DNA from: Candidatus Heimdallarchaeota archaeon
Lineage (GTDB): Archaea; Asgardarchaeota; Heimdallarchaeia; Heimdallarchaeales; Heimdallarchaeaceae
Direction of reading: 5' to 3'
DNA length: 25,937 nucleotides
Assembly: GCA_021399345.1 (NCBI GenBank)
Contig: JAAFKI010000145.1
Coordinates: forward strand, 1 to 25,937
This document shows, piece after piece, positions 4,545-19,904 of the stretch (its first letter is position 1; each line of letters begins with the position of its first letter). The translations under genes and the position numbers were made by a program. A model generated the notes under the pieces. The model was given only the letters and a program-made list of their open reading frames with translations. It was not told where the DNA came from and made no database searches.

Positions 4545-5540
4545 ATGAAGATTCTATTGACTGGTCCATTTGGCAATGTAGGAGAGAGTACACTTAGCGA
4601 ACTATTACGAAGAGGATATGAAGTTCGGTGCTTTGATAAGAAAAATAGAAAGACAAAGAAAGTTCAGAAAATCCTGTCCAAACTGGGAGCTTTTGAAACA
4701 ATTTGGGGTGATATTCGAAATAAAGAAGACGTAGAGAAGATAGTTCAAGATGTAGATTTTGTTATACATTTATGTGCTGTGATACCACCAGAAGCAGATG
4801 AGGTTCCAGAATATGCTACGCAAGTAAATGCTGGAGGTATGCAAAATCTTGTTGATGCTCTTGAAAAACTGGAAAAGAAACCAAAAATACTTTTTACAAG
4901 TTCCTTAGCTATTTATGGCTCAAAGATGGCTTTACCTCCACCAAGATATGTAACAGATGAGATTAAACCTCTTGAACATGATCTTTATGCTTTTCAGAAA
5001 TGGGATATGGAAAAAATACTTCAGGCTAGTTCTCTAAATTGGATGATTCTTCGATTAACAGCTGTTCCTTCATTAAGACAACCCATGAAAATTCCTGCTC
5101 TCATGTTTGAAGTACCTTTTGACCAAAGAATCGAATTTATTCATACTTGGGATGTTGCTCTAGCATGCGTTAATTCAATTGATAACTTTGTAAAACACAA
5201 AATAATGAATCTTGCTGGAGGAGAAAAGTGTCAGATGACAGCGGGAGAGTATATAACCAGACAACTGAAAGCTTTTGGTGTAGGTCCTATTCCTAGAGAA
5301 TGTTTTTACGAACCTAAGACTAACGATGACTGGTTTCATACTGATTGGCTTTTTACAGAAGACTCTCAAGAGCTACTTCAATATCAAAGATATACTCTAG
5401 AAGACTATGCGAAAGAGTTTGAGAGTAGAATAAAACTTCGAAGATTTCTAGTTAGTTTAGTTAATCCATTAGCACAGCTGTTTCTTATCTTACGCTCTCC
5501 GTATTATAGACAAAACAAAAAGTCTGCAAGAAATAAATAA
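4545..5540 (+). CDS. Extended SDR: NAD(P)-dependent epimerase/dehydratase, 3-beta-HSD-like superfamily
   Basis: TGPFGNVG Rossmann motif, GDIR, VIHLCA, FTSS, catalytic YxxxK (YAFQK), FIHTWDVA; amphipathic C-terminal helix. Confidence 0.88.
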   Translation: MKILLTGPFGNVGESTLSELLRRGYEVRCFDKKNRKTKKVQKILSKLGAFETIWGDIRNKEDVEKIVQDVDFVIHLCAVIPPEADEVPEYATQVNAGGMQNLVDALEKLEKKPKILFTSSLAIYGSKMALPPPRYVTDEIKPLEHDLYAFQKWDMEKILQASSLNWMILRLTAVPSLRQPMKIPALMFEVPFDQRIEFIHTWDVALACVNSIDNFVKHKIMNLAGGEKCQMTAGEYITRQLKAFGVGPIPRECFYEPKTNDDWFHTDWLFTEDSQELLQYQRYTLEDYAKEFESRIKLRRFLVSLVNPLAQLFLILRSPYYRQNKKSARNK

Positions 5541-12566: not shown

Positions 12567-13262
12567 ATGAGTTTTGAAGATAAGCTTGATCCAGATTATG
12601 TTTGTGAAACTGTAGAAATAATTAAAGATCCTAGAAAGTATCAAATGTTAGAAGAGCCGAATTTAGAGCCAATTATTGTGGCATTACGTAAAGGTCCTAA
12701 AACTGTCAATGAATTGGAAATAGAATATAATGCTATTGTAAAAGAAAAGATACAAAAAATGAATCTAACACGTAAGGAGGAAGAAGTTTTAGAGAAGAAG
12801 ATGTTTAGACAAGCTAAAACGCTTTATAAATACATCAAAGTGCTTAAGGAAAACGGTTTTGTTGTTAAAGCAGGAAAACGTTATACCAAGAATCAAAGAG
12901 CTGCAGAAACTCTGTATGGGAGAACAGCTAAACTTTTCTTTCACATAGGAGGAAAGCAATCTTGGCTGGATTCTGAAACAATCAAACCTTCTCTAGAATT
13001 TATGTCTAAACTGTTAGGTATTATGAATCAAACTAAGAAACCATCAGTAAAGAAGCTTAGAGAGATTCTAATTTCAGTGGAAACCAAAGTAAATCAAGAT
13101 CTAGAGAATCTCTTCACTACTTTCTCTAAAGAAATTGCTGATATATCAGAGGATATTACTTATGAAAATTTTAAATTCCTCATATTCGGTTTAAATCTTA
13201 TACTTTTGATGAAGAATTATCCAGAATTTGAAGACGATTTGAAGAAAAGTAAAATTATTTAA
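12567..13262 (+). CDS. Winged helix-turn-helix transcriptional regulator (ArsR-like, with helical insertion)
   Basis: IIVALRKGPKTVNEL...KTLYKYIKVLKENGFVVKAGKR...ETLYGRTAK; divergent from the MFS gene. Confidence 0.8.
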   Translation: MSFEDKLDPDYVCETVEIIKDPRKYQMLEEPNLEPIIVALRKGPKTVNELEIEYNAIVKEKIQKMNLTRKEEEVLEKKMFRQAKTLYKYIKVLKENGFVVKAGKRYTKNQRAAETLYGRTAKLFFHIGGKQSWLDSETIKPSLEFMSKLLGIMNQTKKPSVKKLREILISVETKVNQDLENLFTTFSKEIADISEDITYENFKFLIFGLNLILLMKNYPEFEDDLKKSKII

Positions 13263-13286: not shown

Positions 13287-13658
13287 ATGATAACTGGTGT
13301 GGATGTTGTCTTTATTCATGTTAAAGATCCAGTAAAAATGATGAAATGGTATAGTGAAGTACTTGAGTTAGAATCGGGTTTTTCAACTCCTGACTTACAT
13401 TGGCAAGAATTTACATTTCTTAAGAAAGCACCTTCTAGATTTGCTTTAGACTGCGTGAGTGAGAAACCTTCAGATGTAGAACAACAAAAGATAATGATTT
13501 CTTTTAAAGTAAAAGATTTGAAAGAATTCGTTGAGAAATTAGAATCTAAAGGAGTAAACTTCTATGGTTCTCAAAAAATAATTGATGCAGGACCAACACT
13601 ATTTGCGACCATCCAAGATATTGAAGGTAATTGGATACAATTATCTCAAAGGAAGTAG
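13287..13658 (+). CDS. VOC/glyoxalase family protein
   Basis: VFIHVKDP...KWYSEVL, ISFKVKDL, LESKGV, FATIQDIEGNWIQL. Confidence 0.92.
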   Translation: MITGVDVVFIHVKDPVKMMKWYSEVLELESGFSTPDLHWQEFTFLKKAPSRFALDCVSEKPSDVEQQKIMISFKVKDLKEFVEKLESKGVNFYGSQKIIDAGPTLFATIQDIEGNWIQLSQRK

Positions 13659-13765
13659 TAGATCCTTTTTCCATTTAGCTACAATTCTTTTTTGGAAATG
13701 TTGGAAATGACACAAGAAGTATTTTAAATGAGTAATCAAAATAAACCAAGAAAAGAGAGATTAAA

Positions 13766-14893
13766 ATGGTTGATATTATAGATTATCTGCTTTCTTTTGA
13801 TGCCACTATATTCTTTATAGCCCTTGGAATTTACAGCGGTTTTTTAGTAATAATGTTTCTAGGAACAAAATTTCTTCCTGGAATCAAAACACAAGGCGAA
13901 CAGCTAAAGGATGGTTCAAGGAAAGACTACAAATTGACAGGCTTAATGTTATTCATGATCTCAACTTTAACTGCTGTTTTAGTTTTTGTCTTAAATGAAA
14001 CTGTTTCTGCAAGATGGAATTTAACATATATAGCTCGAGCATTTTTTCCACTACTAATCATTGCAACTATTTTTTCATTTATATGGAGTCTTCTACTCTT
14101 CTTCTTGGGAAGACGAAAGCAAGGAGAGAGCAAAAGTAAAGGAGTAAAAGGGGTTTTGCATGATTTTTGGTTTGGACCAGAATTGAATCCAACATGGTGG
14201 GGAGTAGACCTCAAGATGTTTACTTATCAACCATCTCTAATTGGTCTTTCATTTATTAACTGGAGTTTTCTCTTTCTACAACTACAAGAATCGGGATATA
14301 TTTTACCACAAATGTGGATGTATCAGGGATTTTGGTGGTTCTATCTGTTTACCCATTATATTCTCGAAGAGTTCATGCTTACAACATGGGATATTATGGC
14401 AGAGAATTTTGGATTTATGCTAGTGTGGGGAGATTTAGTTTATGTCCCATTCTTCTATTCTATTGCAGGATGGTTTATTATAATTCAAACTGAAGCTTTC
14501 ACTATTTATCCAATTATTATCTTATGTCTAGCTTATTTTGTCTCAATCTGGATTTTTAGGGGATCCAATATACAGAAATTTAGATTCAAAAGAAATCCTA
14601 ATATCAGAATTTGGTTTAAGCCAGCTAAATCTTTAGAGGGAAAAATACTTATCTCTGGATTTTGGGGGATAGGTAGAAAACTAAACTATTCAGGAGAAAT
14701 ACTTACTTATCTTGTTATAACTTTAACAACAGGAATTTACTCCCCAATCCCCTTTATTCTCCCACTTTCATTATTAATTCTTCTTACTCATAGAGCATGG
14801 CGTGATGATAAGCGATGTAGGAAAAAATATGGAAAACTTTGGGAAGAATATTGCTTAATTGCAAAATATAAGATGATACCGAAAATATACTAA
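13766..14893 (+). CDS. ERG4/ERG24 family sterol reductase (Delta14-sterol reductase / LBR-like)
   Basis: DFWFGPELNP...DLKMF, TTWDIMAENFGFMLVWGDLVYVPFFYS, IFRGSNIQK, LISGFWGIGRKLNYSGE, HRAWRDDKRCRKKYGKLWEEYC...IPKIY. Confidence 0.92.
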   Translation: MVDIIDYLLSFDATIFFIALGIYSGFLVIMFLGTKFLPGIKTQGEQLKDGSRKDYKLTGLMLFMISTLTAVLVFVLNETVSARWNLTYIARAFFPLLIIATIFSFIWSLLLFFLGRRKQGESKSKGVKGVLHDFWFGPELNPTWWGVDLKMFTYQPSLIGLSFINWSFLFLQLQESGYILPQMWMYQGFWWFYLFTHYILEEFMLTTWDIMAENFGFMLVWGDLVYVPFFYSIAGWFIIIQTEAFTIYPIIILCLAYFVSIWIFRGSNIQKFRFKRNPNIRIWFKPAKSLEGKILISGFWGIGRKLNYSGEILTYLVITLTTGIYSPIPFILPLSLLILLTHRAWRDDKRCRKKYGKLWEEYCLIAKYKMIPKIY

Positions 14894-14904: not shown

Positions 14905-15177
14905 TTAGAAGATAGTCCTATATGGGGGATTCTTTGCCATTTCTTTCAATTCTTCTTGGGTAGCTGTTGCCATGATATATGTTTTGATTCCCCCAATTAA
15001 GTTTCGAACATCATAGTCCCTTTGCAGAAGATTCATTTGAGATATATAAGCTCTAAAACCTTCTTGACAGAAAGCATAAATTGGTTTATCGTCTGGCAAT
15101 TCATCTAATCTTCTAAGTCTTGCTGCAGTCGAAGCTCCACCTGCAACACCACCTACAATAATAACTTTCTTTGACAT
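14905..15177 (-). pseudogene. Internally deleted CoA-disulfide reductase-rhodanese fusion
   Basis: The first 26 aa (KVIIVGGVAGGASTAARLRRLDE) are the CoADR FAD-binding start. They join directly to LPDDKPIYAFCQEGFRAY...VRNLIGGIKTY, the C-terminal half of the rhodanese domain. Confidence 0.8.
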
Positions 15178-15236: not shown

Positions 15237-16754
15237 TCAATCGTTTGTACGGTTTTTTCTTCTTTTAAGAAATGCTAAAATAAGAATAGAAATCCAGAGA
15301 GTATTTAGAAAAGTAACGTCATTTGTGGTAGTGTTTTCTGATTTAAACGCATAAATATCAATGGAATGTGCAGATCCATCAATTTCATATCCATTTTTAC
15401 CAGAAAAATCTGTCCAAAAGTTTCCTTCCTCAAGATTTGAATCAAACCATATATTCTGTTCTCCGTCGTCAAAAGCTTGGCTAAACCCATCTAGATTATT
15501 ATATACAAACTCATTGTGGTGTATTCTATTGAAATATGAATATTGATCTAGATAGACTCCATATTCAGTGTTTTCAAAGAAGTAGTTATAAGCTATAACT
15601 GAATCAGATGAATTTGTAGAATAGATGCCGTTAAACTTACTCTTTGAAATATAATTTTGTCCGATATAAATCTCATCCGATTTTCTAAGATATATCCCAT
15701 GAATGCCACTTGAAATTATATCATTACCCGAGATTAAAGCCTTTGAAACATAATTAAAAAATATGCCATCACAAGAACTTTCAGAAAAATTATTCTTCGA
15801 AGCCGTAACATAATCACTATTTTCTATATGTAAGTTGTAAACGATACTTCTAGAGCAAAAATTCTCCAAAACAGTAGCGTAATGAGAATAGTTCTCAATT
15901 TTGATTCCAACTTCTGTTCTATCAATAGTGTTGTTATAAATAAAACAGTATTGACTTTCTGAGCAAAGTATTCCCCCTTCAACTCTATCATAAATATAAT
16001 TTGTAGAAATCTCAGAATAATCACCTCTACTTATTGAAATCGCAATCTCATTAGGTGATGGTCCCAGATATCCTTGCATTGTTATTCTATTGTTACTTAT
16101 AATACTATTTGGACAACTACTGATACTTATACCTTGATCACATGCGTATAAAATGTTTGATTTCAATATTGTTCTAGCTAAATCATATCCTCCTACACAG
16201 TAAATACATGAAGTAAAATTGTTATTTTGAATTAAACACCCATCTGAATTGCGTAAAAACATAGCAATGCTAAACTTCTCAAAAGTGTTATTTTCGATTA
16301 TTACTTCTTCAGAGTATTTAATTTGTAAACCTGTATTTTCATAATACACCATATTCTTGAATGTATTAGATTCAACAACTGCTGTTCCTAAAGTAATATT
16401 TTCTAGATATATTCCATCATTATTTGCAACAAGTGTATTATTTGTAACAACAAAATATTTAGCTGTATTCTTAATGAATATCGAATATCCATTAGGTGAT
16501 ACATTGCTAAAAGCCATATTTTGTATTAAGTAAGGATTCTCTGAAGTACCGTTCCCTGGAAACCCATAGTCGATAAATCCAGAATCTGAAGTTATATATA
16601 TATTTATCAAAAATGAGAGTTTTTTTCCAGAATCTATTTGAACAGAACTCGAACCTGTACTAGAAAGAATCATTGTATATGATAATGAAAATATAAGAAT
16701 CATCAGAACGAATAATCGACTCAGTTTGAATTTTGTCAATCTACTCGTTCTCAT
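15237..16754 (-). CDS. Secreted right-handed parallel beta-helix (NosD/CASH-like) surface protein, paralogue 1
   Basis: Signal peptide, DYGFPGNGTSENPYLIQN, many I..N..GI repeats, GNFWTDF...YEIDG...DIY, C-terminal transmembrane segment plus KRRK. Confidence 0.88.
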   Translation of the reverse strand: MRTSRLTKFKLSRLFVLMILIFSLSYTMILSSTGSSSVQIDSGKKLSFLINIYITSDSGFIDYGFPGNGTSENPYLIQNMAFSNVSPNGYSIFIKNTAKYFVVTNNTLVANNDGIYLENITLGTAVVESNTFKNMVYYENTGLQIKYSEEVIIENNTFEKFSIAMFLRNSDGCLIQNNNFTSCIYCVGGYDLARTILKSNILYACDQGISISSCPNSIISNNRITMQGYLGPSPNEIAISISRGDYSEISTNYIYDRVEGGILCSESQYCFIYNNTIDRTEVGIKIENYSHYATVLENFCSRSIVYNLHIENSDYVTASKNNFSESSCDGIFFNYVSKALISGNDIISSGIHGIYLRKSDEIYIGQNYISKSKFNGIYSTNSSDSVIAYNYFFENTEYGVYLDQYSYFNRIHHNEFVYNNLDGFSQAFDDGEQNIWFDSNLEEGNFWTDFSGKNGYEIDGSAHSIDIYAFKSENTTTNDVTFLNTLWISILILAFLKRRKNRTND

Positions 16755-16793
16755 TAGTATTTAATTTACTTTTTTACTTATAATCTTTTACTC

Positions 16794-18323
16794 TTACAAA
16801 ACTCTCTTCAACCTTCTCTTTGAACTCTTAGAGTATCTCATTTTTCTTTTAGAACCTAGAAAGTAAATTGCTATAATAGTAATTGCGGAAAAGATAATTT
16901 CTGTTGAAGTTGATACATTGTTTGTATTTGTTGGTTTAGAAAATAAAGGGTAAATATCTACAGATCCAGCAGTACCGTCAATATAGTAATCTCCTTCACC
17001 TTCATAATCCATCCAAATATTTCCTTCTTTTTGAGTAAGATCGAACCATGTATTATTTTCTCCATTGTCACATGCTTGACTATAACCATCTAGGTTATTG
17101 TTATAGAATTCATTATGGTGAATAACATTGTTAGATGATTGTATATCAAAAAAAAGACCAAACTCTGAATTTAGATGAATATAATTATTAATAATAGTAG
17201 AATCATCTACATTATCACAATAAATTCCAGTAAGTTCATTTCTAGCTATATAGTTCTGACCTATAAAAACATCAGGACATGTAGAGAAATATAATCCATG
17301 ATATTCTGCACTTACTACATCATTATTTAGAAAAACAATTTTGGAGACATCATGAAAAATGACATTATGATAGGTACTTAGTGAGAAATTGTTCCTAGAA
17401 CATATAATATTTTCACAAGACTCTACAAATAAACTATAATATCGACTTTTCGCACATGTATTTTCTGTGAGAGTAATCTGATTGGAATTTGATTTAATTT
17501 CTATTCCTACACCTGCATCTTCAATGATGTTATTGTGAATTATATTGTTAGAACTCTCTGAAAGAAAAATTCCTACATCATAAGGAAATTCGAAATAGTT
17601 TGAAGAAATTTCTGAATATGTAGTTTCAGAGAAATAAACACCCGTATGATCATCAATATAATTGTTTTTAATTGAGATATATGAACTACCAGAAGTAAAT
17701 CTAACACTTCCTAGTAAATTGTGTTCGATATTGATATTATGAGATCCAACACCAAATAGACCACTGTGAATATCATTGTTATAAATATCTATATCTTCAC
17801 TCCACCAAAGCTCAATAGGTCTATAGCAATATATGAAATCGTTTTTCTCTATTCTTATTCCATTTGAAGACACAATACTTATTCCAATATTGGAATGAGG
17901 CCATGAAATATCTGAAAAGTCGAAAGTATTGTCTAAAATAACACCAGTTCCACTTGCAATATTATTTATATATATTGAATAGTTGTTATTTGCTGTTATT
18001 ATATTGTTTGAGATTACAAAAAATCTAGTTGTATTTTCTATGTGAATTGAAGACAGTGTAGTAGAATTCTCACTTAAAGTCATATCTTGTAGAAGATATG
18101 GGTCAGAATGTGTTCCATTCCCTGGAAAACCATAATCAATGAAATCTGAATCTTCATTAATATATATATAACTTATAGACGAAAGATTCAAATCTTGCTT
18201 TAATATCTGAATATTGTTTGTTGAATTAAAGATAAATTTAGAATTTAAAATAAAAAATGACACAATAAAGAATAGAACTATAAGCTCTCTTTTCTTAAAG
18301 GTCTTTACATTGATCATTTTCAT
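16794..18323 (-). CDS. Secreted right-handed parallel beta-helix (NosD/CASH-like) surface protein, paralogue 2
   Basis: Same architecture: DYGFPGNGTHSDPYL, GNIWMDY...YYIDG...VDIYP, transmembrane segment plus basic tail. The start may be ATG 18317. Confidence 0.88.
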   Translation of the reverse strand: MKMINVKTFKKRELIVLFFIVSFFILNSKFIFNSTNNIQILKQDLNLSSISYIYINEDSDFIDYGFPGNGTHSDPYLLQDMTLSENSTTLSSIHIENTTRFFVISNNIITANNNYSIYINNIASGTGVILDNTFDFSDISWPHSNIGISIVSSNGIRIEKNDFIYCYRPIELWWSEDIDIYNNDIHSGLFGVGSHNINIEHNLLGSVRFTSGSSYISIKNNYIDDHTGVYFSETTYSEISSNYFEFPYDVGIFLSESSNNIIHNNIIEDAGVGIEIKSNSNQITLTENTCAKSRYYSLFVESCENIICSRNNFSLSTYHNVIFHDVSKIVFLNNDVVSAEYHGLYFSTCPDVFIGQNYIARNELTGIYCDNVDDSTIINNYIHLNSEFGLFFDIQSSNNVIHHNEFYNNNLDGYSQACDNGENNTWFDLTQKEGNIWMDYEGEGDYYIDGTAGSVDIYPLFSKPTNTNNVSTSTEIIFSAITIIAIYFLGSKRKMRYSKSSKRRLKRVL

Positions 18324-18344
18324 ATAATTAATATACAGCTCTGC

Positions 18345-18366
18345 TAATAAATTCTATTCACATTTT
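18345..18366 (-). promoter_or_regulatory. Duplicated promoter block (BRE/TATA-like) upstream of paralogue 2
   Basis: AAAATGTGAATAGAATTTATTA on the - strand; 21/22 identical to 19905-19926. Confidence 0.6.
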
Positions 18367-19876
18367 ATAGCATTCGTTTATGATATTTTTTTCTTCTAGA
18401 AATCGCAGAATATAAAGTTAAGATAGATATTGAGAACCAGATGATTTCCATTGAAACTGATAGATTGTTAGTCTTTGTAGGATCAGACCCTAAGGGGTAC
18501 ATATCAACAGAACGAGCATCACCGTCAATATAATAATCTCCTTTTCCTGAATAATCCATCCACAGGTTACCTTCCTGTAGCACAGGATCGTACCAAGAAT
18601 TATTTTTTCCGTGATCACAAGCTTGGCTAGTTCCACCAATGTTATTATTATAGAATTCATTATGATGAACAACATTGTTCTCTGACCGTAAATCAAATAG
18701 AATACCGTACCCAGTATTTTCATGAATATAATTATAGATAATAGCTGATTCATCTACATTATCACAGAATATCCCAGCACCTTCATTCCTTGCAATATAA
18801 TTTTGGCTCATAAAAACTTCAGAACATGTAGCAAAGTATATCCCATAATATCCAGCACCTATTACATCATTATTGAGGAAAACAATTTTGGATACAAAAT
18901 GAAAAAGTACACTCTGATATCCTCCCTGTGAAAAGTTATTGTAAGTAAAAGTTATATGATCACACGACTCTACTAATAAGTTATATTGAGAACTTGATGA
19001 ACAGGTATTTTCGTTAAAAACATTGTTATCAGAATTTGCTTTAAGTTCAATTCCAATAAATGCGCTTTCAATAGTGTTATTGTATATGAAATTATTAGAA
19101 CTCTCTGAGAAATATATACCAGTTTCAGTTTGGACTGCTTTTATGTAGTTCGAGGATATCTCGGAATATGTTGTTTCTAAGAAAGTAACACCGTTGTGAG
19201 CATCCATAAAATTGTTACAAATTGAAATATATGAGCATAAATAAGTAGTAAAAACCCCCCGAGTTGAGCTTAATATCAAATTATTTTTAAAAACAATAAA
19301 ATTGGCCCTAACGCACGCTAATCCAGTAAAACAAAGCTCAATTTTATTATTATTAATTTCAATATCTTCACAATACGAAAGACTAAAAGCATAACCACAG
19401 TCATAGAAAAAGTTATTTTCGATTCGTATGTTCTTACTCCCTAAGATCCTAATTCCTGTGTTAAATCCATGTGAGAAATCAATTGTATTATTAGAAATAA
19501 TTACTGTTCCACTAACAACATTTCTTAATTGAATTGCATTACTATTATTAGCTGTTATTGTATTGTTTGAGATAATGAAACATTTGGTTGTATCTTGAAT
19601 GTGAATTGACGACCCAGCTGGTGATTCATCAATTAAAATCAAATCTTGAATGAGATAGGGATCATTAATTGTTCCATTTCCTTGGAATCCATAATCAACA
19701 AAATCTGAATCCTCATTGATATTTATGTATGGAAAAGATAAGAGATTCATTTCCTGATTAGAAGCTTGTATATTATTTGTAGAATTGAGGAAATTATTAG
19801 AACTAAGTAATAAAAGTGAAAGAATCAAAACCAGAACCATAAGTTCTTTTTTCTTAAAACGTCTTGCTCTGTTCAT
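18365..19876 (-). CDS. Secreted right-handed parallel beta-helix (NosD/CASH-like) surface protein, paralogue 3
   Basis: Same architecture. ATG 19876 (MNRARRFKKKEL) aligns with paralogue 2 MINVKTFKKREL, so it is preferred over TTG 19903. Confidence 0.88.
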   Translation of the reverse strand: MNRARRFKKKELMVLVLILSLLLLSSNNFLNSTNNIQASNQEMNLLSFPYININEDSDFVDYGFQGNGTINDPYLIQDLILIDESPAGSSIHIQDTTKCFIISNNTITANNSNAIQLRNVVSGTVIISNNTIDFSHGFNTGIRILGSKNIRIENNFFYDCGYAFSLSYCEDIEINNNKIELCFTGLACVRANFIVFKNNLILSSTRGVFTTYLCSYISICNNFMDAHNGVTFLETTYSEISSNYIKAVQTETGIYFSESSNNFIYNNTIESAFIGIELKANSDNNVFNENTCSSSSQYNLLVESCDHITFTYNNFSQGGYQSVLFHFVSKIVFLNNDVIGAGYYGIYFATCSEVFMSQNYIARNEGAGIFCDNVDESAIIYNYIHENTGYGILFDLRSENNVVHHNEFYNNNIGGTSQACDHGKNNSWYDPVLQEGNLWMDYSGKGDYYIDGDARSVDMYPLGSDPTKTNNLSVSMEIIWFSISILTLYSAISRRKKYHKRML

Positions 19877-19904
19877 TCTCTCATTAATAATATGATTGTT
19901 CAAT

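Follow-up and report, generated by a model that had tools for sequence, protein, structure and literature searches.

The contig JAAFKI010000145.1, part of a metagenome-assembled genome (MAG) of a Candidatus Heimdallarchaeota archaeon, carries a gene of the ERG4/ERG24 family of sterol reductases. With it, a family already known gains a member from a new host domain: the gene was acquired from bacteria, and it is an orphan, that is, a family member kept by a prokaryote without the rest of the pathway. The stretch analysed (the window) is the whole of this 25.9-kb contig (25,937 nucleotides; contig C78 of the MAG). The MAG comprises 3.27 Mb in 199 contigs and is 88.6% complete and 2.8% contaminated.

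The reductase reading frame occupies positions 13766–14893 of the forward strand, runs from ATG to stop and encodes 375 amino acids. Its translation matches the Pfam profile PF01222 (ERG4_ERG24) with an E-value of 3.5e-70 and 237.4 bits (gathering cut-off 27), residues 20–375 covering profile positions 71–432 of 432, and has no other Pfam match. A six-frame search of the genome returned the same PF01222 result and identified the gene as the only one of its kind in the MAG; no NCBIfam model matches it. An earlier, sequence-only reading had called an intact sterol reductase at exactly these positions, and the two motif blocks that it quoted, LISGFWGIGRKLNYSGE and THRAWRDDKRCRKKYGKLWEEYC, are both found in the translation.

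An AlphaFold2 model built from an input alignment of 47 sequences has a pLDDT of 93.6 and a pTM of 0.91. Its best Foldseek matches are chains A and B of 4QUV (TM 0.85, root mean square deviation 2.7 Å over 374 columns, E 2e-21), the delta14-sterol reductase MaSR1 of Methylotuvimicrobium alcaliphilum; this is the only significant structural match, the next having an E-value of 0.08. The two proteins are 34% identical in the structural alignment, and the archaeal one is about 50 amino acids shorter, the sequence alignment beginning at MaSR1 residue 73. By sequence search, 4QUV matches at E 1.7e-61 (212 bits), and 9L5R, a 592-amino acid chain deposited as delta(14)-sterol reductase and taken as eukaryotic from its length, at E 3.4e-33 (119 bits). 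The protein is thus a full-length ERG4/ERG24 family member, with the predicted polytopic, all-helical membrane fold of MaSR1, and would catalyze NADPH-dependent reduction of sterol C=C bonds.

Roles of individual residues can be transferred from passages in two papers that cite the MaSR1 structure work. Tyr241 and Asp363 of MaSR1 are named there as predicted catalytic residues (PMC12489058), and mutation of LBR residues N547 and R583, equivalent to MaSR1 N359 and R395, is stated to lower NADPH affinity (PMC4951196). In the archaeal protein, Tyr193 (codon at 14342–14344, forward strand) aligns with the predicted catalytic Tyr241, and none of the sequences compared deviates from Tyr at this position (7/7 from Heimdall archaea, 23/23 from the bacterial sisters). 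The C-terminal cofactor block (residues 297–362, positions 14654–14851, forward strand) is conserved in 7/7 Heimdall sequences. Its first part includes W300, R304, N307, Y308, and E311, and its second part, the HR..RD..C..KYG..W..Y block, R343, R346, D347, C351, K354, Y355, W359, and Y362. N307 and R343 align with MaSR1 N359 and R395, so that the Tyr and both NADPH residues named for MaSR1 in these passages are common to the two enzymes.

The position of the predicted catalytic Asp363 is taken by Glu311, with the carboxylate kept. Glu is found at this position in 22 of the 23 bacterial sisters and in only 7 of 76 other sequences, the remaining 69 having Asp, and it is probably functional in place of Asp. 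Three bacterial sister groups have 90 invariant sites in common, of which the archaeal clade keeps 82 (91%), as compared with 89–99% when each of those bacterial groups is left out in turn. The archaeal changes are also mostly conservative, and the sequence thus gives no hint of a change in the class of substrate.

The gene has upstream elements of its own. A TATA-like box, TTTTAAAT, lies at 13722–13729 (forward strand), approximately 40 nt 5' of the start codon, where the sequence-only reading had placed it, and its TTTAA core is invariant in 8/8 orthologue upstream regions, including three with otherwise unalignable flanks. This conservation points to a role as promoter. A purine-rich, putative Shine-Dalgarno-like GAGAG is found at 13755–13759 (forward strand), 6 nt before the ATG; the same place is occupied by GAGAG in near orthologues and by GGTG or GTGAG in distant ones. 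The gene is also AT-rich like its neighbours, as had been remarked: its GC content is 0.331 and its third-position GC content (GC3) 0.267, within the 0.19–0.27 of neighbouring genes, as opposed to GC3 of 0.93 in the Myxococcota homologue and 0.43 in that of Moorea.

Nine orthologous coding sequences are intact, and pairwise dN/dS is 0.06–0.16 for pairs with unsaturated dS (0.2–0.43). The gene is kept under purifying selection. Apparent lesions in single genomes were rejected: the seemingly split copy in G016, a candidate pseudogene, is interrupted by a scaffold gap of N, the copy in G006 is split across contig ends, and the internal stops suspected in G018 and G009 lie upstream of the start, both coding sequences being intact. 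The lack of pathway partners would fit a transferred gene that is non-functional or has a non-catalytic, structural role, but this is highly improbable in view of the nine intact orthologues and their dN/dS values, the complete retention of catalytic and cofactor residues, and the conserved putative promoter element.

The host assignment does not depend on ribosomal RNA, as no 16S rRNA gene was found assembled in the MAG with archaeal and bacterial models. The lineage was set from the TATA-binding protein (TBP), actins, and named relatives: the MAG encodes TBP and two eukaryote-like actins (E ~1e-130), and the records with close orthologues of the reductase are named Candidatus Heimdallarchaeota. 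The GC content of the contig is 0.326 vs. 0.335 for the genome, and its tetranucleotide signature (r 0.991) is inside the range of the MAG. At least five independently assembled Heimdall MAGs share the order of genes surrounding the reductase, one of them on a 153-kb contig. This order comprises genes for saccharopine dehydrogenase, SBP, MFS, a 231-amino acid hypothetical protein, and glyoxalase, then the reductase, followed by a CoA-disulfide reductase (CoADR)-rhodanese gene, NosD-like genes, GNAT, and nitroreductase.

The presence of TBP and actins, the fit in composition and the gene order in independent MAGs exclude contamination or chimerism for practical purposes, and the contig is genuine Heimdall-group Asgard DNA. 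A bacterial contaminant or a chimeric contig binned in an archaeal MAG might be suspected from the bacterial affinity of the reductase's nearest relatives outside the genus and from the 2.8% contamination estimate. Such an artefact is next to impossible when the recurrence of gene and neighbourhood, the tetranucleotide fit, the agreement of the gene tree with the RpoB tree (see below), and a GC3 of 0.27, as in the neighbours and unlike the 0.43–0.93 of bacterial sisters, are considered together. The impression of an archaeal genome gained from the sequence was therefore correct, and a bacterial or chimeric origin of the contig, named beforehand as what would overturn it, does not apply.

Within Asgard archaea, the gene is narrowly distributed. 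PF01222 matches at E ≤ 1e-20 were found in 11 of 400 Asgard genomes, all in one of 85 genera, and two closed genomes of the same family are without it. In an RpoB tree of the family, which places only carriers with a full-length RpoB match, all placed carriers belong to one 11-member subclade (SH-aLRT 93), while the other three subclades of the genus (8 genomes) have no reductase; the minimum number of state changes on this tree is two. The sole non-carrier in the carrier subclade, G011, is missing the flanking gene's orthologue too, so that a loss of the reductase cannot be claimed there, and the region is probably unassembled. In the non-carrier G007, the flanking genes abut at a distance of 36 bp, the reductase and the adjacent glyoxalase gene both being missing from this empty site. 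The internal branching of the reductase tree mirrors that of the RpoB tree.

One genome, G020, was omitted from the RpoB tree because of its interrupted RpoB. Its RpoB matches at C1:84819–89249 come in two pieces (residues 1–310 and 303–972) about 1.5 kb apart within one stop-free frame of 1637 amino acids, an arrangement that looks like an intein.

The proteins nearest to the archaeal reductase outside the genus are bacterial, with 47–54% identity, and come from Nostoc, Moorea, Myxococcota, Plesiocystis, and Deltaproteobacteria. A search of genome contigs for related loci returned only six Heimdall and three distant Saprospiraceae loci, and the bacterial sisters were obtained from protein searches. 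An exhaustive search of 1.84 billion cluster representatives yielded 165 clusters at E ≤ 1e-30, from which, together with named sequences, a quick tree of 106 rows and a careful tree of 47 rows (LG+C20) were built. In the careful tree, the Heimdall clade is monophyletic (100/100) and lies inside a 99/98 clade in which every named member is bacterial; the 106-row tree agrees. The surrounding bacterial reductases include those of Myxococcota, Nostoc, Moorea, and Streptomyces. The Heimdall clade stands in an 84/95 polytomy that also contains Myxococcota, the Plesiocystis group, and a Proteobacteria MAG, and that does not pin down the donor phylum.

Sequences labelled as eukaryotic sit across a 96/89 branch. 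These include newt LBR, Priapulus and fungal delta14-reductases, and a DHCR7-labelled cluster, as well as plant FACKEL-type, red algal, choanoflagellate, Rigifila, and Amoebozoa sequences. The eukaryotic ERG24, TM7SF2, LBR C-terminal domain, FACKEL, and DHCR7 proteins share the Pfam family and the cofactor motifs with the archaeal protein. The Heimdall group is considered closest to eukaryotes, from which an ancestral Asgard gene, kin by descent to ERG24, LBR, and DHCR7, could be envisaged. On the sequences sampled here, such an ancestry can be practically dismissed. Forcing the Heimdall and 16 eukaryote-side sequences together was rejected by the approximately unbiased (AU) test (delta lnL 149, p 3e-70); the hypothesis was that of the sequence-only reading, the rows having been chosen after the tree was seen. 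The gene is, moreover, restricted to a single subclade in one of 85 genera, nests among bacterial sequences, and has Glu where eukaryotes mostly have Asp. The 375-amino acid protein consists of PF01222 only and is without the nucleoplasmic Tudor/RS N-terminal domain of LBR.

That this gene bears on how eukaryotic sterol and nuclear-envelope proteins arose, as had been proposed, is consequently not supported: the distribution, the nesting within reductases of bacterial sterol clusters, the Glu signature shared with bacteria, the AU rejection, and the missing LBR-type N-terminal domain all oppose it. A tempting inference is thereby removed, since the reductase is no vestige of eukaryogenesis and is uninformative on those proteins.

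The restriction to one genus and one RpoB subclade, the congruent trees, the synteny, and the empty site in G007 instead establish that the gene was passed once, long ago, from a bacterium to an archaeon and then descended vertically, with purifying selection shown by the dN/dS values. The possibility that the gene is a lone recent transfer, which was to lower its significance, has come out half right: the transfer was single, and in this respect the significance is lowered, but it is old rather than recent, and the gene has been maintained by selection. In the proposed history, the gene would have been gained once, horizontally, from a sterol-producing bacterium of the clade with Myxococcota and Nostocales-type cyanobacteria, by the ancestor of one subclade of one Heimdall-group Asgard genus. 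It would then have acquired the host composition and an archaeal promoter of its own, and been inherited vertically under purifying selection.

Five bacterial sister genes were examined, and four of them are located within or next to genes of sterol synthesis; such bacterial clusters have been described (PMC7306690; PMC10202945). The Myxococcota cluster contains an ERG2-type isomerase, a CYP-type cytochrome P450, a ferredoxin, the reductase, an FAD-binding oxidoreductase, and two 3bHSD genes. The Moorea cluster includes squalene synthase, three P450s, 3bHSD, a KstD-like flavoprotein, three Rieske/KshA-type oxygenases, a methyltransferase, and EBP. In the Nostoc locus, the reductase is followed by squalene epoxidase, oxidosqualene cyclase, Rieske oxygenases, and ERG2, and in a fourth genome, squalene epoxidase adjoins the reductase; the Plesiocystis copy is not clustered. 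That P450 and ferredoxin genes adjoin the reductase suggests delta-14 reduction.

The bacterial sterol-cluster reductases (about 368 amino acids, annotated as delta14-sterol reductase or DUF1295) are 47–52% identical to the archaeal protein over the full length and resemble it in size, in having Glu at the MaSR1 D363 position, and in all cofactor residues. They differ in gene context, being found beside oxidosqualene cyclase, squalene epoxidase, CYP-type P450, ERG2 or EBP, and Rieske demethylases, whereas the archaeal gene stands alone; unlike them, the archaeal gene has a host-like, AT-rich composition and a putative archaeal-type promoter. These "Glu-type" (or "E-type") ERG4/ERG24 reductases constitute a bacterial clade of their own, embedded in the sterol clusters of Myxococcota and cyanobacteria, and the archaeal protein, annotated as a putative NADPH sterol C=C reductase, belongs with them.

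No squalene epoxidase or cyclase is present in the window, as the sequence-only reading had noted, nor in the host genome or the other 24 genomes of the genus. The cyclase N domain (PF13249), squalene epoxidase (PF08491), and P450 (PF00067) were found in 0 of these 25 genomes. In the host genome, the cyclase C domain (PF13243), squalene/phytoene synthase (PF00494), and ERG3/ERG25-type FA_hydroxylase (PF04116) were not found, and tblastn with the bacterial cluster proteins gave no match for P450, ERG2, EBP, Rieske/KshA, ferredoxin, or squalene synthase. The reductase is an orphan because cyclase, epoxidase, CYP51, and squalene synthase were not found. Asgard archaea are likewise said, in reviews and preprints, to lack sterol pathways, sterol metabolism not having been identified in them.

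It could still be argued that the carriers make sterols de novo, the missing steps residing in unassembled parts of the MAGs, which are 72–92% complete, or being performed by non-homologous enzymes, as bacteria do for some sterol steps, e.g., with SdmAB and Bsr. This is very improbable: the 25 genomes yielded no oxidosqualene or squalene-hopene cyclase N or C domain, no squalene epoxidase, and no P450, and the genes of squalene synthase, FA_hydroxylase, EBP, ERG2, and Rieske/KshA type were not found in the host genome. Missing all of them by chance in 25 MAGs is very unlikely, and no sterol route is known without a triterpene cyclase.

One further gene of possible steroid type was found in the host genome by tblastn with the Moorea flavoprotein. 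It encodes a KstD/AcmB-like homologue of 3-ketosteroid delta1-dehydrogenase of 554 amino acids (contig C41:81923–83584, corresponding to L051:7921–9585, reverse strand) and is 46% identical to the Moorea-cluster protein. It scores 715 bits on the NCBIfam 3-oxosteroid 1-dehydrogenase equivalog NF005882, just below the 788 cut-off, and matches PDB 7P18, deposited as 3-oxosteroid 1-dehydrogenase, over its full length (E 2e-122). Its neighbours are genes for DUF998, SDR, and FMN reductase. The gene is found in 30 of 400 Asgard genomes, including 19/24 of the genus, 11/11 reductase carriers, and two sister genera, and also in two distant Asgard families at about 40% identity; no published report of this Asgard gene was found. 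It is compatible with steroid-type chemistry, and its support is circumstantial, because the genomes share ancestry, the distribution of the gene goes far beyond that of the reductase, and non-steroid cyclic ketones can also be substrates of the family.

Two other candidates for steroid-type partners were not used as support. An SRD5A-type Steroid_dh gene (PF02544, E 2.3e-53) at C109:19134–19589 (forward strand) of the host genome occurs in 23 of the 31 genomes of the family, including non-carriers and closed genomes. It is probably a core gene and may encode a polyprenol reductase rather than a steroid enzyme. The window gene at 4545–5540, considered as a 3bHSD-type sterol gene, scores better as a generic NAD epimerase and was not counted.

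Directly 5' of the reductase lies a glyoxalase/VOC-fold gene (13287–13658, forward strand; PF00903, E 2.3e-7), which is syntenic in near orthologue loci. Further upstream, at 12567–13262 (forward strand), the gene of the 231-amino acid protein is syntenic 5' of the glyoxalase-reductase pair and has paralogues of 27–35% identity in related genomes. This protein has no Pfam match; by eye, its N-terminal part resembles a winged-helix DNA-binding domain, and it may be a regulator.

Convergent to the reductase on its 3' side is an open reading frame of 90 amino acids (14905–15177, reverse strand), an in-frame internal-deletion remnant in which an FAD-binding N-terminus is fused to a rhodanese C-terminus. 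Its counterpart in relatives is an intact CoADR-type flavoprotein with rhodanese of 570–587 amino acids. The CoADR-rhodanese gene was used as an anchor for the comparison of synteny and the empty site and is given no part in the function of the enzyme. At 15237–19903 (reverse strand) follow three tandem paralogues of 505–512 amino acids with NosD/right-handed beta-helix character and hydrophobic, basic C-terminal tails. Their copy number and identity differ between related MAGs, and the proteins are probably located at the cell surface.

In the deeper-branching orthologue group, an IS605-family OrfB/TnpB gene (Cas12f1-like TNB) lies directly 5' of the reductase on the 153-kb contig of G001 (L023:4354–5613). 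Co-transferred sterol genes were sought beside deeper-branching orthologues, but the extra 3 kb in G001 hold only this gene and an ORF without assigned identity. TnpB genes also flank the sterol clusters of Moorea and another cyanobacterium, which suggests a mobile-element hotspot; a part of these elements in the transfer is speculative.

The archaeal protein would thus be a catalytically competent, membrane-embedded, NADPH-dependent reductase of sterol double bonds, working by the mechanism of MaSR1 and ERG24. Protonation of the double bond would fall to the conserved Tyr-acid pair, and the hydride would come from an NADPH molecule held by the C-terminal pocket; the target bond may be delta-14, or delta-7, or delta-24(28). 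The host of MaSR1 makes sterols, unlike the archaeal carriers. Because these are without cyclase, epoxidase, CYP51, and squalene synthase, the sterols would have to come from outside, the substrates being sterols or sterol intermediates from the environment or from partner organisms. On balance, action of the reductase on scavenged exogenous sterols is judged probable, by a modest measure.

There is a bacterial precedent for such a situation in Coxiella burnetii, which, like the archaeon, is a prokaryote without sterol synthesis that keeps ERG4/ERG24-family enzymes (CBU1158 and CBU1206/Stmp1). Of the two, Stmp1 acts on yeast sterols and is believed to modify extracellular ones (PMC8787468). 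The two cases differ in origin and setting: the Coxiella genes are eukaryote-like and probably come from amoebae (PMC8787468), whereas the archaeal gene comes from bacteria, and Coxiella lives in sterol-rich host vacuoles, whereas the archaeon has no known host association.

The enzyme may alternatively have been recruited to a non-sterol substrate made by the archaeon itself, such as an isoprenoid quinone, a polyprenol, a cyclic terpenoid, or an ether-lipid precursor. This would agree with the missing endogenous sterol source, with the literature in which no sterol metabolism has been identified in Asgards, with the longish stem branch, and with the cyclic diterpenoids made by Heimdall relatives. 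It is nevertheless rather unlikely. The archaeal clade retains no fewer of the sites invariant in its sterol-cluster sisters than those groups themselves do, and its catalytic and cofactor residues are unchanged. Furthermore, no SQHop-type terpene cyclase was found in the 25 genomes of the genus, which removes the halimadienyl route if such cyclases match these Pfam models. All characterised PF01222 members known to us act on sterols, and this, too, was counted against a non-sterol substrate.

Several points weigh against the scavenging of exogenous sterols. All genomes are MAGs of the completeness given above, so that the absence of the pathway means that it was not found in 25 genomes and is not proof. 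A system for the uptake of sterols was not identified. For an enzyme that acts strictly on delta-14 bonds, the substrate would be a short-lived intermediate of biosynthesis, of which little is to be expected outside cells. The literature yielded no assay of any enzyme of the bacterial sister clade. With 0.42 substitutions per site, the archaeal stem branch is fairly long and leaves room for some functional drift, and the KstD-like gene has the wider distribution and the range of possible substrates described above. Among the readings considered, that of the sequence-only account, in which scavenged sterols are modified or another isoprenoid is reduced, continues to fit best.

No published report of this reductase gene was found in the literature. 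It provides a clean and datable case of bacterium-to-Asgard transfer, in which a membrane lipid enzyme has been kept by selection without its pathway, and its analysis defines an uncharacterised Glu-type clade of bacterial reductases. It also raises the testable question of whether exogenous sterols are imported and altered by some of the Heimdall archaea. Such modification would bear on the reading of sterane and stanol biomarkers in sediments and on the in vitro transfer of sterols by Asgard START proteins. The fuller proposal, that a Heimdall lineage of marine sediments and seeps takes up and transforms eukaryotic or bacterial sterols by means of the reductase, possibly together with the family-wide KstD/AcmB-like enzyme, is tentative and somewhat more doubtful than not. 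If true, it would be the first sterol metabolism in Archaea, and the lineage could contribute to sterol hydrogenation in sediments or put tailored sterols into the archaeal membrane.

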